Assembly: GCA_964354495.1 (NCBI GenBank)
Contig: CAYHAA010000010.1
Location: 30,001-62,000 of the forward strand
Direction: 5' to 3'
DNA length: 32,000 bases
Source: an uncultured archaeon
GTDB lineage: Archaea; Asgardarchaeota; Thorarchaeia; Thorarchaeales; Thorarchaeaceae
A model generated the notes under the pieces. That model was not told the origin of the DNA. It did not search any database and saw only the letters and a list, made by a program, of their open reading frames with translations. The position numbers were made by a program, and so were the translations under genes. Position 1 is the first letter of the stretch, and each line of letters opens with the position of its first letter. Shown piece by piece: positions 1 through 25,739 of the stretch.

Positions 1-1499
1 TTCACGGAAGAGAGAGAGGAAGCTACAGGCACACCGAGGAATCGAGAAGGAAAATATCTGAAGGCCTGAAGGGAAAGAAACTGAGCCCAGAGCACCGAAG
101 GAAACTCTCTGAGGCGAATATGGGAAAGATGCACAATAGACATACTGAGGAGTCGAGAAGGAGGATCGCAGAGTCTCTGAAAGGGCATGAGGTACCAGAA
201 GAAACACGTAAGAAAATCTCTGAGACCTTACGGGGGAGAAAACTGACTGAGGAACATAAGCGAAAGGTATCAGAGTCTCTGAAAGGCAGGAAACGGGGTC
301 CGATGAGTGAAGAAACTAAGAAGAAGCTCTCTGAGGTCAAGACAGGTGTGAAGCTTGGACCACAATCTGAGGAATCAAGAAGAAAGAGATCTGAGGCTCA
401 GAAGGGGAGGAAATTCACAGACGAACATCGCAGAAAGCTCTCAGAATGGCAGCGAGGTAAGAGGCTGAGTGAAGAACACAGACGGAAGATTGGGGATGGA
501 CTAAGGGGCAAGAAGCGAGGGCCAATGAGCGAAACTCAGAAAGAGAAGATTTCGCAATCTCTCAGAGGAAGAAAAGGTCACCCCGTAAGCGAGGAAACCA
601 AGAGGAAACTCTCAGAGCTGGGAAAGGGGAGAAAACACTCAGATGAAACAAAAAGAAAACTATCGGAAATACAAAGAGGGAGAAGGAGGAAGCCGCACAG
701 TGAAGAAACAAGAATAAAGATATCCGAAGCAAACAAGGGAAAAAAACGGGGTCCGCCAAGTGAAGAAACTAAGAAGAAGAGATCTGAAGCTCTCAGAGGG
801 AGGAAACTGAGTGAGGAGCATAAGAAGAAAATCAGTGAAGCGAACAAGGGGAAGATGCCATCTCCACTCTCCGACGAGGGGCGAAGGAGAATATCTGAGG
901 CAAATAAGGGCAAGATTCTGACCGAAGAAGTCAAGCGGAAGATATCAGAAGCTCACAGAGGAAAGAAACACGGCCCACTAAGTGAGGAACACAGGAGGAA
1001 GATATCAGAGAGCAACAAGGGAGTCAGTAGACCTTCACCATCAGCAGAGCATAGGAAGAAGTTGTCTGAAGCAGGTAAACGACGACCTCCGATGTCCGAA
1101 CAAACAAGAAAAAGAATCTCGGATTCCAATAAGGGTCACAAAGTATCCCTTGAAACAAGAATGAGAATATCCCTTGCTCATGGAGGCGATGGCATCTATT
1201 ATTCTGAAGATGAAGACCTTAGGGATACACGCTACAGAAGAAAGCAATCATTAGAAGCGAAGAGAAGAGATGATTTCACCTGCCAAGAATGCGGCAGGAA
1301 ACCTGAGAATAGTATAGACGTTCAAGGCCACCACATAGTTCCTAGAAAAGAATGGTGGAGAATGGAGTATTACCCATTGGACTGGGTTGTGACACTATGT
1401 ACAGATTGCCACATTGTTAGTGATAAGCGGAAAGGAGTCATCAAATGGCCAAAGATGTCAGAAAACGCAAAGCAAACCAGAGTTGACGAGTTCAGCTAG
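1..1499 (+). CDS. NUMOD3-like repeat array fused to a C-terminal HNH endonuclease domain (5'-truncated by the window edge)
   Basis: The frame is open from base 3 (HGRERGSYRHTEESRRKISEGLKG...), so the Met at 120 is probably internal. There are 21 units of consensus (S/T)EE(H/T)xxK(I/L)SExx(K/R)G. The C-terminus has CQECG...GHHIVP...LCTDCH, the Zn-binding HNH pattern. Confidence 0.85.
   Translation, partial: HGRERGSYRHTEESRRKISEGLKGKKLSPEHRRKLSEANMGKMHNRHTEESRRRIAESLKGHEVPEETRKKISETLRGRKLTEEHKRKVSESLKGRKRGPMSEETKKKLSEVKTGVKLGPQSEESRRKRSEAQKGRKFTDEHRRKLSEWQRGKRLSEEHRRKIGDGLRGKKRGPMSETQKEKISQSLRGRKGHPVSEETKRKLSELGKGRKHSDETKRKLSEIQRGRRRKPHSEETRIKISEANKGKKRGPPSEETKKKRSEALRGRKLSEEHKKKISEANKGKMPSPLSDEGRRRISEANKGKILTEEVKRKISEAHRGKKHGPLSEEHRRKISESNKGVSRPSPSAEHRKKLSEAGKRRPPMSEQTRKRISDSNKGHKVSLETRMRISLAHGGDGIYYSEDEDLRDTRYRRKQSLEAKRRDDFTCQECGRKPENSIDVQGHHIVPRKEWWRMEYYPLDWVVTLCTDCHIVSDKRKGVIKWPKMSENAKQTRVDEFS
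291..779 (+). repeat. Near-exact 36-nt direct repeat within the NUMOD3 array (copies at 291-326 and 744-779)
   Basis: Both copies read aaacggggtccg[atg/cca]agtgaagaaactaagaagaag, 33 of 36 nt identical and 453 nt apart. Confidence 0.9.
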
Positions 1500-3034: not shown

Positions 3035-4312
3035 CTACGGCCTCCTCAGAATGAAGTTCGAGATACTGGTTCCAGTACCCGCGTGGCTGTTGACAAGACC
3101 AACGTTGGCGTCTTTGACATACGTCCTGGCACTCAGGTGCTTCTTGGGCGCAGTGTCATTCAGGTGATACATGCACTCGAGAGTGCTCATGATTCCGGTC
3201 GCACCCACAGGATGCCCATACCCCATCAGACCGCCACCAATGTTGGTTGGTACCTCACCATCGAGGAACGTCTGCTTCTCACGGACGAACTGCTTGATAT
3301 TGTCTCTATTGCACCAGTGGAGCGCCTTGTAGATCTGGGTCTCTGAGGAACTGAAGGCATCGTGGATCTCAGCGACATCAACCTCCTTGGCCGCCCTGTT
3401 GTATTCAATGCCAGCCATATCGTAGGCCATTTCACCAGAGTAGCGACAGGCTGCGAACTCGGTCATGTCCGGGTAGCCTTTGCCGTACTTCTCATTCCAA
3501 CCTGGAAAGTCAATACGGTCCCCAGCACGAATGGTGCAGCTACTGAGACCAGCACCAGCCATCTCAACGTATGTGTCAGGAGCGTGCTTCTTTGCCCACT
3601 CCTCGCTCGTGACAAGACAGAAGGCGCCACCACGGCTCATGAGACAGCAGTCCAGCCGCTTGAGGGGATAGCTGATGAGGCGACTCTCCATGACATCCTC
3701 GACTGTCAGTGTCTTCTTGTAGTAGGGGGACTTTGGGTTTGTGTAGTCGCTTCGATACCACTGGGACTTGGCATTGTCTGCAGCGTAGTTGCGGTTCTTC
3801 ATCGCAGCAAGTGCAAAGTCCTCCTCCGTTAGCCCGTTCTCTTTCATGAACTTGTGAGCCATCGCAGCGTAGTAGATAGGATAGATGCCTCCTGCAAGTG
3901 CCTCGTACCTCGTGTCGGAGGCAAGGGCGATGAACTCACTGCCCTGGGACTGAGTCACGTTATCCATCTCTTCCCATCCGTAGATACCCACCACATCGAA
4001 CATGCCCGATTTGATTGCCATGAATGCTCCATAGAGTGCAGAACCTCCCGTGTTCCCGCCATTCTCAATCCGAAAATGAGGAAGACCGACTAGCCCAAGG
4101 TGATCATGCACGACCCACTCAGGTGCAAGCTGCTTGCCGAAGTGGACTGAGAAATGTGAATAGATCATGAACTGCAGGTCCCTGAGAGAGAAGTCAGGGA
4201 TGTCATGTTGAGTTTCCACAATGCAGTTCGCAGCCATACCTTCAGGGGTAATGTGCATGGGATAATCGAAGGGAGTCGCCGCACCACCTGCGATACACAC
4301 TTTTCGACTCAT
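3035..4312 (-). CDS. Thiolase-superfamily protein (SCP2/archaeal type) lacking the nucleophilic Cys
   Basis: VAEIHDAFS and NIGGGLMGYGHPVGATG motifs are present. The usual ENACASG loop reads ENGGNTG. Confidence 0.88.
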   Translation of the reverse strand: MSRKVCIAGGAATPFDYPMHITPEGMAANCIVETQHDIPDFSLRDLQFMIYSHFSVHFGKQLAPEWVVHDHLGLVGLPHFRIENGGNTGGSALYGAFMAIKSGMFDVVGIYGWEEMDNVTQSQGSEFIALASDTRYEALAGGIYPIYYAAMAHKFMKENGLTEEDFALAAMKNRNYAADNAKSQWYRSDYTNPKSPYYKKTLTVEDVMESRLISYPLKRLDCCLMSRGGAFCLVTSEEWAKKHAPDTYVEMAGAGLSSCTIRAGDRIDFPGWNEKYGKGYPDMTEFAACRYSGEMAYDMAGIEYNRAAKEVDVAEIHDAFSSSETQIYKALHWCNRDNIKQFVREKQTFLDGEVPTNIGGGLMGYGHPVGATGIMSTLECMYHLNDTAPKKHLSARTYVKDANVGLVNSHAGTGTSISNFILRRP

Positions 4313-4414
4313 AATATATCACTGAATCCGATTTTCGCTGTCCATGGGACAGACGATGCTGCGCCAACACCGAAAATGCAAGTACTTAACAGCTTCGGAC
4401 GAGTTTGAATTCTG

Positions 4415-5161
4415 CTATCGCCTATTCATCTTCATATACCGAAGGATTACACCCAAGACGACGAGTTCCACGATGATTCCCGTTCCTAGAAAGATGGCGT
4501 ACGTGTCTGGGAGCCAAAGTGGGACGGATGTATTAGATGTTTGATTTGTTGTGAGTGTAGGGGTAAGGTTTGAGAATTCTATATTAGCTGAGTAGAGTTC
4601 ACGGGTAGTAAGATAGGGTCCAGTATGACTATATCGAACACAAATGCCTCATTCAATGTCGAAGAAAAAACTGGAGTTCGTAGGCGAGGGGTAATCAGTG
4701 AAAGCTTTGACGCACCAACACTCAAGCGATCCAAAAGAGAGGCTAATTGTCGAGCGACCTTCAACGTGAATTTCCGTTTGCGTACAGAATATCGCTACCG
4801 GTGAATCTTGAAGGTCCATACCTGCATACCAGCCACTTGTATTCGTGAAAAGAGGTTGCATCATTGCAGAACCGGTACCTGGAGCATATATTTCCCAGCT
4901 TGGCATGAAGACCAAATACACATCCTCATAGTTCAGACAATCTCCAGTGACAGAATAGGGGATTTCAAGTACATATTCTGAACTATTATAGGGGGATTCT
5001 GTCCAGCCAGAGATATCGTAGTGAAATCCACAAGTTGTGTCAGCGTTTGTATATGTATAGTCTAGGTGCAAGCCCACAGGAAAATCATCAATGGTTATTG
5101 CGTCAATTGGACAGACCAAAACAGAACCAAGTGATGCAAGCAGAATGAACAGAATCAGCAT
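4415..5161 (-). CDS. Membrane-anchored surface protein interrupted by an in-frame TGA at 4649-4651 (recoded, nonsense allele, or sequencing error)
   Basis: It starts with a hydrophobic signal. After the TGA the same frame continues for 77 codons (GICVRYSH...Thr-rich linker...AIFLGTGIIVELVVLGVIL-RYMKMNRR) to a TAG at 4415-4417. Confidence 0.75.
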
Positions 5162-5375
5162 TTTGTGCGGCTTCAGATGTACCCCGACCCCGATAACTCT
5201 GGGTAAGAGAGCCAGTTAAATCTATCCCAAGACATGCATTGTGAACTACATACTATTGGCACATGTTCGGCCGTCTATGAAATGAATTAGCATCCGAAAA
5301 ACAGGCTCCAAGGCATGCAATTCCTACAAACAGAAAGAGCATGCTTGGATGATCAAACAAAGTATAGCGTGATGC

Positions 5376-11290: not shown

Positions 11291-13501
11291 ATGAAAGTCA
11301 GAAAGTGCATTGCTGTTACGATTCTTTTTTCCCTGATGTTCTATGCTATGCCAATGGCTTGGGATGATACTGCTCCCCTGAAAACAGATGAGTATGTTGG
11401 CCACAGCGTTGGGGATCCGTCATCTCAGCTAGAAGTGGATATTGCTTCAGAGGAAAGGACACTCTCGGGGCTCCATGAGATTCCTCCAGCCCCTCAGTTC
11501 GAGGACACAATGGCAATCGTGGTTGAGAACCTGCTCTATCCATCGATTGGCGATGCAGTCAATCAATACAGACAGGACCTGAATGACTCAGGATACAATA
11601 CTCTGCTCTATACAGAGCTCTTGTCAACAGCAGAAGAGCTCAAGGGTAATCTCACGCAATGGTATGAAGGACAGAGTCTTCGTGGAGCAGTCCTGATAGG
11701 ACGGCTGCCATATGCGGAATTCCATCATCCTGCAGCCACAGGTTTTGATGCATCAACATTCATCTGCGACTTGTTTCTCATGGATCTGGATGGAGTATGG
11801 ACCGATACCGATCCAGAGAATGGTATCTATGATGGCCATTCTGGCGAAACACCCACAAGTGATATCTTCCCTGAGATCTTCGTTGGACGCATAGATCCGA
11901 CCTGCCTTTCATGGAGTTCGAGTGTTGCAGACGAAGTGAACAACTATCTTGCACGCATTCACGACTATCGTACTGGAGGAGTTCAGAGGGCTCGTCGTGC
12001 CATCGTCTACATCGATGATGATTGGGCAGGATACTGGGGAACAAGGTGGGCAAACGATGTCGGCCTCGTGTATGGAACGCGGACAGTGATTCAGAATCCA
12101 ACGACATGGACAAATGCCACAGACTGGAAGAATAATAGGCTTGGTCAGGACTATCAATGGGGCCATCTCTGTGCCCATAGCGATGCCGCTACGCATGCAT
12201 TCGGTCCTGGGGGCGCAGGCGCGGAGGGACTTGTTACATCAGCCGAAATCCATTCCATTCCTCCGTCTTTCAACTTCTACAATCTGTTCTGTTGCTCCGG
12301 TGCAAAATGGACTGCAAGCAACAACCTCGCGGTGACCTACACATTCACCGGACCCTATGGTCTTGCTAGTATAGGCAGCAGCAAGACCGGAAGCATGATG
12401 GACTGCGATGAGTTCTATGGTCCTCTCGCTGAGAATGCAACACTGGGAGCGAGTCTGAAAGACTGGTTTTCGAACTCATTGAACTCGGATAGTTCTGCAG
12501 GTACGCTCTACCTTGAATGGTACTATGGAATGAACATCATTGGCGATCCATTGTTGACCACATTCTATGACTGCACGGTTCTGGCTCCACAGGTCTATTC
12601 CACTACGCACCAGAATCCAGGAGCGTGGTACTCAAATCCGTTTCCACAGTTCAATTGGACGACCCCTCCTGATGTGAACGCCATCAATGGGTATTACTAT
12701 ATTCTGGACCAAAATCCCATGACAGTCCCGGTTCCAGAAACAGCCACTTTCACAACGAATAACAGTATTCTACTGGCTGAAAGCCTCAGCGATGGAACGT
12801 GGTATCTCCATATCGTTGCAAGAGACTCCGCAGGGAATATCGGAAGCGAATCTGGACATTGCGCCGTAAGGATAGACACAACACAACCCTCAGTTTCTGT
12901 TGTGCAACCAAGTCAGCAGAGCATTGCCACGGCCTCGACGATGTTTGCTTGGTCAGTCCAGGACACTCGCAGTGGCTACTCCCGTTCTGAGGTCTGGGTA
13001 GATTCTGATGCGAATCTGATTTACAATGGCACTGCAGTAGTCCTTCTCCTAGAGGACCTTGTAGAGGGCTCTCATACGGTGAATGTGACAGTGTATGACC
13101 GAGCCATGAACAGGGGAAGTGTGATGCGTACCATCTTGGTCGATCTCTCTGACCCTGTCCTTACACTCCTCAGCCCAACCGTATACACAGTAATTGTGAG
13201 GACGATTGCTCTTGAATGGCGTATCTCCGAAATTGGTTCAGGGTATCAATGTACAGAAATCAGAATTGATGGAGAGCTTGTCGGGGCGGCTGAGTCACCA
13301 GCCACCTCATTCACTATCGGAAATTTGACCTATGGAACAAACACGGTGAATCTGACTGCATTCGACTGGGTCAATAGGACAGATTCGGTGGAGTTCCAGA
13401 TCGTCGTTCAGCACTCGATTTCCGGATTTGTCCCTCTGGTTGCGGCCGCAGGCCTCCTCATGATTCTCCTTCTGATAGTGTTATACAGAGAGAGGAGCTA
13501 A
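11291..13501 (+). CDS. Secreted, membrane-anchored C25 (gingipain-like) cysteine peptidase with Ig-like repeats
   Basis: Signal peptide; GAVLIGRLP, CDLFLMDLDG and PEIFVGRI; putative catalytic His (HLCAHS) and Cys (LFCCSG); beta-rich repeats ending H/N-TVNxTxxD; a C-terminal TM followed by RERS. Confidence 0.8.
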   Translation: MKVRKCIAVTILFSLMFYAMPMAWDDTAPLKTDEYVGHSVGDPSSQLEVDIASEERTLSGLHEIPPAPQFEDTMAIVVENLLYPSIGDAVNQYRQDLNDSGYNTLLYTELLSTAEELKGNLTQWYEGQSLRGAVLIGRLPYAEFHHPAATGFDASTFICDLFLMDLDGVWTDTDPENGIYDGHSGETPTSDIFPEIFVGRIDPTCLSWSSSVADEVNNYLARIHDYRTGGVQRARRAIVYIDDDWAGYWGTRWANDVGLVYGTRTVIQNPTTWTNATDWKNNRLGQDYQWGHLCAHSDAATHAFGPGGAGAEGLVTSAEIHSIPPSFNFYNLFCCSGAKWTASNNLAVTYTFTGPYGLASIGSSKTGSMMDCDEFYGPLAENATLGASLKDWFSNSLNSDSSAGTLYLEWYYGMNIIGDPLLTTFYDCTVLAPQVYSTTHQNPGAWYSNPFPQFNWTTPPDVNAINGYYYILDQNPMTVPVPETATFTTNNSILLAESLSDGTWYLHIVARDSAGNIGSESGHCAVRIDTTQPSVSVVQPSQQSIATASTMFAWSVQDTRSGYSRSEVWVDSDANLIYNGTAVVLLLEDLVEGSHTVNVTVYDRAMNRGSVMRTILVDLSDPVLTLLSPTVYTVIVRTIALEWRISEIGSGYQCTEIRIDGELVGAAESPATSFTIGNLTYGTNTVNLTAFDWVNRTDSVEFQIVVQHSISGFVPLVAAAGLLMILLLIVLYRERS

Positions 13502-23756: not shown

Positions 23757-25739
23757 TTGGTGTACACTATGAATTACTACTGGGAGCCTGCACGCATTCA
23801 AAGAAGATCCAGAACAAATGGAACGAAGCTCATTGCGCTTGTCATTATTCTCATGGTCGTGGTATCCGCGGGGCTAGCGCTGCTAGGGAACATCAATCCC
23901 AACAGTATAGGCCCCACTGAAGCTGTGAGAGTTGCAGTATTGGACTCGGGTGTTGACATAGACTTCACTCTACAAGGGAGGATTGCTGCTCAACAGAGCT
24001 TCATTACAGTCGAAAATGGGTATAGCGCGACGGATACATCAGTGAGTGATGCAAAGCCGGATGATGTTCCTCATGGTACATTGATTGCTAAACAGATTGC
24101 ACAGGCCGAGAACGCTCTCATCATCAACGGCAAAATCCTTGACTATGAAGGCAGCGCAACGACAATGGGGCTGGTAGATGCAATTCACTGGGCAGTCGAG
24201 CAGAATGCAAGCGTCATCAATCTCAGTCTTGGTGGTTCGCCCACTTTTGGCGACCTGACAGAGGCAGCAATCGATTGGGCATTCTCGCAGGGGGTCGTCG
24301 TCGTCGTTTCAGCGGGGAATTCTGGTGACTACGGAGTGCCGGGTACATGTATAGAGTCGCCAGCAGTCTACATGAGATGCCTAGCTGTTGGCGCCTTGAC
24401 AGCTAATAACGAGCCTGCATATTTCACCTCCACTGGACCTGCAAGGGAGCTCTACATGAAACCGGACATCAGTGCTCTGGGCTACACAACGGATGGTGAT
24501 GGAACGCAGTATTGGGGGACAAGCTTTGCAGCTCCAAGGGTCTCTGCGGCTGCGGCACAATTGATTGGTTACTCTATGGCGAATAACATAACATGGTCAC
24601 CTGGGTCTATCATGGCAGCCCTGATGAGAGGAGCTGAAGTCCTGACTAGTTATCAACCGTATGAAGTAGGTGCAGGCAAACTGGACCTTCAGGGTTCCTT
24701 GACCCTCATTCAACAGCTATCATCAGCCGACGAACTGCCTGCAATCAGCTATGCATTTCCAGGAATGATACCCATAGACTATGAGCGGCTCTTTCAGGGA
24801 GATACATACAACTTCAATATTCGGCTCTTTACTGGAGGCGCGACTGTGTTCTCCACATATGTAGGCGCCGATAATTCGTCACTATTCGTTATCGACGACG
24901 AAATCATGGTGGACCAGATTGCCTCTGTTCCAATCTCTGTAATTGTTCCGAGTTCTGGCGTAAGCGATGTGATAGGCACAATCTCATTCACTTCGGAGGA
25001 CTTTGGAGATACCAGTGTTTTCATCTCATTCCCAGTTGGCACTCCTGTTGCCAGAGTCGCCTTTGACATCTCACATTCCACTTGGGACATAGACTCGATC
25101 TATGGGCAGTTCAGGGAGTTCTACAAGGAGTTGGTCGGCAATGATATATCAGTCACTGAGATTCGTAACAGCACTGCCACGACTCTAGACATTCTCCAGC
25201 AGTATGATGCGGTCGTTCTTCTTGATCCCTGTGTCTACACATCGAACGAGACTGATCCAGGGAATGTAACATTATTCTCCATTCCATTCTCAGAGGTCGA
25301 GAGGAATGCCTACGAAGACTACTACAATGCTGGTGGAGGGCTATTCATCGTAGCCTTGTCAGAATCGAGCCTCAATTTGTCAGCCTTGAATGATTTCCTC
25401 TCATGGACTGGATTCTCGTTGACGTCAATGGAAGTGCCCCTTGGAAACACGCCCGCACTCATAGATGAGATTAATGTTCATATCATCACATCTGGAGTGG
25501 ATGCCTTCCACTATCTGGGAGCAACCATCGAGATACCTGCGGATGGACACACACTTGCATTCTATGGAGGTATGCCCATAATGGGATACAAGGAGGGCGC
25601 TGGTGGTGGAAAAATCGTGGTGACAGGGAGCAACTTCATGCTCGATAACTGGGGGCTCCTCGGTCGGTACACAGGATCAAATGATAATACTCTCTTGGCA
25701 CGACGGATTGTTCTCTGGTGTGCAGATCAACTCGCATAG
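23757..25739 (+). CDS. S8 subtilase with an N-terminal TM anchor and a C-terminal site-1-protease-like/GATase-like domain
   Basis: Catalytic triad VAVLDSG, HGTLIA and GTSFAAP, with oxyanion SAGN. The C-terminal domain begins RVAFDISH. An ATG at 23769 is the likelier start. Confidence 0.88.
   Translation: MVYTMNYYWEPARIQRRSRTNGTKLIALVIILMVVVSAGLALLGNINPNSIGPTEAVRVAVLDSGVDIDFTLQGRIAAQQSFITVENGYSATDTSVSDAKPDDVPHGTLIAKQIAQAENALIINGKILDYEGSATTMGLVDAIHWAVEQNASVINLSLGGSPTFGDLTEAAIDWAFSQGVVVVVSAGNSGDYGVPGTCIESPAVYMRCLAVGALTANNEPAYFTSTGPARELYMKPDISALGYTTDGDGTQYWGTSFAAPRVSAAAAQLIGYSMANNITWSPGSIMAALMRGAEVLTSYQPYEVGAGKLDLQGSLTLIQQLSSADELPAISYAFPGMIPIDYERLFQGDTYNFNIRLFTGGATVFSTYVGADNSSLFVIDDEIMVDQIASVPISVIVPSSGVSDVIGTISFTSEDFGDTSVFISFPVGTPVARVAFDISHSTWDIDSIYGQFREFYKELVGNDISVTEIRNSTATTLDILQQYDAVVLLDPCVYTSNETDPGNVTLFSIPFSEVERNAYEDYYNAGGGLFIVALSESSLNLSALNDFLSWTGFSLTSMEVPLGNTPALIDEINVHIITSGVDAFHYLGATIEIPADGHTLAFYGGMPIMGYKEGAGGGKIVVTGSNFMLDNWGLLGRYTGSNDNTLLARRIVLWCADQLA

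Follow-up and report, generated by a model that had tools for sequence, protein, structure and literature searches.

A conserved tryptophan codon read as TGA in an archaeal surface-protein gene: a probable young loss-of-function allele

The interrupted gene and its surroundings

The window (the whole 32,000-nucleotide stretch of archaeal DNA that was analysed) carries on its minus strand an open reading frame that begins with an ATG at 5161, runs for 170 codons to the residues ...SFFFDIE and ends in a TGA at 4651-4649. Past this stop the same frame continues as GICVRY...KMNRR for 77 sense codons before a TAG at 4417-4415. With equal codon usage, 77 open codons would arise by chance with a frequency of about (61/64)^77 = 2.5%, in agreement with the 2–3% given in the initial annotation, whose coordinates and whose description of the TGA, the 77 codons, the sequons, the Thr-rich linker, the transmembrane (TM) segment and the basic tail were likewise correct. 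Read-through would give a 248-aa product whose N-terminus is hydrophobic and which carries the sequons NLT, NQT and NTS, a run rich in Thr, a hydrophobic helix at residues ~219-241 (window ~4507-4439) and the tail KMNRR. Judging from the alignments, the sequence after the TGA is genuine coding sequence, as had been thought very likely from the DNA itself, because the alignment with homologues extends over all 248 aa, with linker, TM helix and tail included. We also considered separate translation of the downstream part and rejected it, as there is no ORF of at least 50 aa in frame between 4415 and 4648 and Met occurs only in the last six codons. The gene encodes a small archaeal cell-surface protein, with a signal peptide, a beta-rich ectodomain of ~175 aa that bears sequons, a Thr-rich stalk, a single TM helix and a short basic tail.

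Table 1 Features of the interrupted gene (window coordinates) and components of the selenocysteine machinery (all within the one interval given on contig C7 of the genome).
Feature	Coordinates	Strand	Observation and basis
Whole interrupted gene, 248 codons + stop	4415..5161	-	Signal peptide, beta-rich ectodomain, Thr-rich stalk, TM helix, basic tail; translation and end-to-end homologue alignment
In-frame TGA, codon 171, replacing conserved TGG (Trp)	4649..4651	-	Homologue codons and X4 contig record 10
Still-translatable ORF, 170 aa	4652..5161	-	Signal peptide and most of the ectodomain; product P0002, called on contigs of two Logan run assemblies
77 cut-off codons	4418..4648	-	End of the conserved domain (~27 residues, GIC..LYSxNIEF), three N-glycosylation sequons, Thr-rich stalk, TM helix (~4439-4507), KMNRR tail
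Original stop TAG	4415..4417	-	TAA in the ~96% relative; translation and X4 contig record 9
3' intergenic region before the thiolase-like gene	4313..4414	-	No SECIS-like element; descriptor scans, model R1, fold z
CTG where homologues use a TTG start	5174..5176	-	Comparison with L011, L012
Conserved neighbour gene, 255 aa	5376..6143	-	No Pfam family; the homologues have a 254-aa gene beside them that is 69% identical; gene order opposite
SelB	C7:70434-74679		277 bits
SepSecS	C7:70434-74679		452.9 bits
tRNA-Sec	C7:70434-74679		54.8 bits
PSTK-like kinase	C7:70434-74679		143 bits, under the curated cut-off

The start of the gene differs from that of its homologues. In two homologue loci (L011 and L012), the conserved sequence GAGGTyGGGGT is followed 4-5 nt later by TTG AAG, the homologue start, and the window reads GGGGTCGGGGTACAT CTG AAG ... 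ATG at the same site. The first usable start in the window is therefore the ATG at 5161, five codons after the CTG, and the MKxRK n-region of the signal peptide is gone. The change from TTG to CTG is a possible second lesion of the gene, and it fits a dispensable gene in decay.

A neighbour gene of ~255 aa adjoins the surface-protein gene in all three loci that were read (minus strand in the window; L011:4982-5746; L012:4966-5730). It lies upstream of the surface-protein gene in the window and downstream of it in the homologue loci, an opposite order that indicates a local rearrangement. On the other side, run X4 (described below), which samples a relative with ~96% identity, has one contig that reaches out of the surface-protein gene and another that reaches out of the thiolase-like gene. 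Each parts from the window at 4365-4398, with loose ends of 255 nt, which suggests that the relative or relatives sampled there do not have these genes side by side.

Other genes in the window encode proteins with recognisable domains. A 736-aa protein (11291-13501, plus strand) has a signal peptide, N-glycosylation sequons, a C-terminal TM helix and a short basic tail, and its only Pfam matches are Big_13 and Big_7. The initial annotation had likened the anchor of the interrupted gene to that of a C25 protease in the window; the shared layout is present in this 736-aa protein, and none of the 20 window ORFs scanned matches Peptidase_C25 at E<=1e-3. A subtilase (Peptidase_S8) is encoded at 23757-25739, and a 459-aa protein at 120-1499 (plus strand) combines four NUMOD3 motifs with an HNH nuclease domain in the manner of a homing endonuclease.

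The TGA position in homologues, relatives and assemblies

A search of 5.8 billion proteins returned five full-length homologues of 272-287 aa with 48-65% identity by BLASTP, all aligned across the stop, linker, TM helix and tail, and also recovered the 170-aa truncated product itself. The family amounts to eight proteins in all in a profile search of 1.84 billion cluster representatives. The surface protein has no match to a Pfam family, and a search of the ESM Atlas by features, with homologue P0005 as the query, returned unnamed archaeal clusters only, with a sub-threshold lead to DUF3108. The protein thus belongs to a very narrow archaeal family of small anchored surface proteins that carries no name.

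Trp occupies the TGA column in all six close homologues (P0003-P0008; 38-60% identity), within the motif FD[VI]E-W-GI; M, Y, L, S and L stand there in five distant relatives, and none of these eleven sequences has Cys at this position. The Gly that follows the column (G172) is invariant in 12/12 sequences. The Cys three residues on, which would complete a UxxC motif, is not conserved and is replaced by Leu in P0003 and by L, V or I in the distant relatives. At the codon level, both homologue loci that were read have GAA TGG GGx ATT TGT against GAA TGA GGC ATT TGT in the window. The orthologue codon is thus one mutational step from TGA, and the orthologous product is full-length (272-287 aa) and TM-anchored. 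A TM helix is present at the C-terminal end in 10/11 relatives.

A much closer relative also carries the sense codon. We compared the Logan contigs of four metagenome runs with window positions 4300-5300, and one contig from a soil metagenome (run X4, record 10) spans 4574-5004 with 17 differences in 431 nt (~96% identity). At plus-strand position 4649 it has C for T, which is TGG on the coding strand, and the differences listed past the stop are all synonymous or conservative (I-I, V-A, T-T, V-V, I-M, L-I, R-R, M-L). A second contig of this run (record 9, 4365-4513) places the stop of the full-length frame at the same position, as TAA for TAG. The TGG codon together with the nature of these differences indicates that the full-length frame was constrained until very recently, and the identity of ~96% shows that the G-to-A change arose within ~4% nucleotide divergence. 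A single-base nonsense change from TGG, which had been offered at the outset as one alternative among several, is what the homologue codons and this relative support.

It is very unlikely that the TGA is a sequencing or assembly error in an organism that truly carries TGG. Such an error would involve just a single base, but the same TGA is present in the metagenome-assembled genome (MAG) and in the per-run Logan assemblies of two run accessions, ERR3804373 and ERR4334727, which rules out a random error of one assembly. An identical 170-aa ORF (P0002) lies on contigs of both Logan assemblies, and these contigs, which differ from the window at 0 of 5130 nt and at 1 of 3868 nt, agree across runs that may share a site or campaign with the MAG rather than across populations shown to be independent. 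The one other base at which one of these assemblies differs shows that its sequence is not a mere copy of the window. Among the sequencing runs that match the window, no RNA run is listed and none has more than 17% of the sampled words.

Selenocysteine capacity of the genome and the search for a SECIS element

The initial annotation proposed that the TGA could encode selenocysteine (Sec) in a UxxC redox motif, and it looked to a genome lacking Sec machinery as grounds against this reading. The genome (3.3 Mb in 51 contigs) has SelB, SepSecS, tRNA-Sec and a PSTK-like kinase, all within one locus (Table 1), as well as a genuine selenoprotein, and a Sec codon is therefore plausible beforehand; the presence of the machinery alone is not proof of one at this site. 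SelD occurs in its Cys form (GLGCACK; G000:C15:38288-39208, minus strand) inside a 743-aa open frame, and from our reading of the sequence it appears to be fused to an N-terminal domain that resembles a NifS-type PLP enzyme. The selenoprotein is a VhuU-like peptide that follows a shortened [NiFe] hydrogenase large subunit, and its TGA lines up with the first of the Cys residues in the motif DPCxxCxxH. In its 3' element, the AUGA core takes in the stop codon and leads into a stem of 11 positions, an A-rich loop of 9 nt, and AA. Huang et al. 2024 (PMC11227280) describe an element of this form as the Asgard eSECIS-like type I.

Other candidates for recoding in this genome were examined and set aside. 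A genome-wide screen for Sec/Cys paralogues covered 15,804 in-frame TGAs and was dominated by off-frame and repeat matches, none of which gave a credible new selenoprotein. A tblastn search with the HdrA-MvhD fusions of the genome turned up nothing but a frameshifted mvhD remnant. The second mvhD/FlpD copy of the genome (G000:C6:139866-140211, plus strand), which is shortened, is readable only across a frameshift and is therefore a decaying duplicate rather than a Sec gene. Reassignment of TGA to Trp, as in code 4, is ruled out, since TGA terminates 506/1223 long ORFs (41%) in the genome; the code is standard and TGA is a normal stop here.

We then have three kinds of result on RNA structure near the interrupted gene. 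The first comes from two descriptors, one of the eSECIS-like type (TGA, a stem of 7-15 with <=2 mismatches, a loop of 3-15, then [G/A]A) and one of a GAA_A-type hairpin. Both gave 0 hits on the coding strand over the 560 nt that run from the TGA (4660-4100, minus), shuffles gave 0.77 and 0.03 hits on average, and the vhuU control was recovered. The second comes from a covariance model (R1) built from the vhuU 3' element of 25 genomes in the same family. The helix of this element covaries, with 88.6% of cells paired, five pairs changed on both sides and 0/500 shuffles reaching the observed score. With filters off, R1 finds no match at E<=10 in 4100-4660 on the minus strand, and its best score anywhere in the window is 9.5 bits. 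Over the whole genome it finds vhuU at 55.3 bits and one further element at 35.9 bits (E 1.6e-6; G000:C1:677397-677441, minus strand, locus L059), which starts ~8 codons past the stop of a CysRS-like gene with HIGH/KMSKS motifs and without an in-frame TGA. The third kind of result is folding: the 73 nt from the stop are no more stably folded than shuffled sequences (z = -0.08), and the minimum free energy (MFE) fold of the 3' intergenic region (4313-4414) is unremarkable (z = -1.08), with the 6-bp hairpin at 4338-4352 belonging to it. The initial annotation had seen no clear SECIS in this region beyond that hairpin, and the descriptors and R1 lead to the same view. A scan of the window and the vhuU locus with Rfam 15 (E<=10) returned no SECIS family even on the positive control and is uninformative.

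Taken with the alignments, these results make it highly improbable that UGA-171 is recoded as Sec, and the UxxC proposal is refuted on grounds that the initial annotation had itself named. The Sec locus and the genuine VhuU-type selenoprotein with its Asgard eSECIS-like element speak for that reading, but neither Cys nor Sec stands at the column in any homologue, where Trp or other residues occur, the relative at ~96% identity has TGG, the Cys of the proposed UxxC motif is not conserved, and no SECIS-like element is detected by two descriptors or by a family-specific covariance model that finds its positive control. The known Asgard selenoproteins also point the other way, since they fall into seven families so far, among 1439 sequences surveyed, and new ones are described as arising from Cys-containing homologues (Huang et al., PMC11227280).

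A recent nonsense allele and its relation to known systems

The best explanation of the locus is a young pseudogene or loss-of-function allele that arose through a recent TGG-to-TGA change (W171*) and is not a recoding site, and we give this reading a probability of roughly 85%. In the lineage sampled, one G-to-A transition would have converted the conserved Trp-171 codon TGG to the stop TGA, so that translation would end after 170 residues. The resulting product would have neither stalk nor membrane anchor and would miss the final conserved strands of the ectodomain, and for this reason it would most likely be non-functional or, at best, released. Truncation removes the invariant or nearly invariant residues G172, L189, N193 and F196, together with the stalk and the TM helix that 10/11 relatives have. 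An AlphaFold2 model on a 6-sequence alignment, which has a mean pLDDT of 38.9 and is used solely as a secondary-structure hint, places two beta-strands at residues 170-191 that would be lost as well. From these losses we infer that the truncated product has lost its function. There is no frameshift or second stop in the 77 downstream codons, and the decay seen is limited to the TGA and perhaps the start codon; the codons would still be open because the mutation is very recent.

The distribution of the gene fits a dispensable, patchily distributed accessory gene. We found no copy in 60 further genomes of the family, among which 9 belong to the same genus, and no related locus in the genome-contig collection searched. 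The count of only 8 representatives among 1.84 billion proteins is likewise in keeping with a dispensable gene.

Leaky termination, in which UGA-171 would occasionally be read by a near-cognate tRNA, most likely tRNA-Trp, would yield a major secreted form of 170 aa and a minor anchored form, and some function would be kept. Near-cognate decoding of UGA by tRNA-Trp would restore the ancestral residue here, and the downstream frame is intact, as this reading needs. Nevertheless we regard it as unlikely, as the stop is not conserved, with TGG in the ~96% relative and Trp in all close homologues, no unusual structure follows the stop, the truncated form is without strands of the conserved domain, and the recency of the mutation fully accounts for the intact downstream frame. 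Somewhat more broadly, released and anchored forms could come from one gene if UGA-171 were partly read in vivo by tRNA-Trp, or by tRNA-Sec without a recognisable SECIS, a proposal that we find quite doubtful. Programmed read-through is also unlikely, because this codon is a sense codon in the relatives and not a conserved stop, and because the sequence past the stop forms no unusual structure. Near-cognate reading of UGA at a low background level may still occur.

The W171* allele is ordinary biology, and nothing points to an unusual mechanism. It does carry a caution for annotation, as in Asgard genomes that use Sec a long open frame past an in-frame TGA does not suffice for a selenoprotein call. 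Homologue alignment, the allele of a close relative and a lineage-specific SECIS model together decide such TGAs quickly. We suggest annotating the locus as an interrupted gene with a nonsense codon (W171*), and neither as a 170-aa protein nor as a selenoprotein. The unnamed archaeal family of small anchored surface proteins to which it belongs could deserve study.

Three known systems provide a frame for this allele. It resembles the selenoprotein genes of Asgard archaea (Thorarchaeia/Lokiarchaeia) with an eSECIS-like 3' element, such as vhuU and frhA, in having an in-frame UGA in a genome with the archaeal/eukaryotic Sec pathway (Mariotti 2016, PMC4989117; Huang 2024, PMC11227280). Unlike those genes, it has no SECIS and no Sec/Cys homologue pair, its UGA is not conserved even at ~96% identity, and its protein is extracellular and of no known redox family. 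With programmed read-through that gives C-terminally extended isoforms it shares a stop followed by a long, open, functional-looking extension with a membrane anchor. Programmed stops of that sort keep their codon and its context across relatives, whereas the relatives of this gene have a sense codon and no stimulatory structure lies past the stop. The closest match is the ordinary nonsense-mutation pseudogene or strain-specific null allele, in which one transition makes a stop out of a conserved sense codon and the rest of the frame stays intact, as expected of a recent change in a patchily distributed gene. From that system the allele has no notable difference; its host is able to decode UGA as Sec, and hence an ordinary stop looks suspicious.
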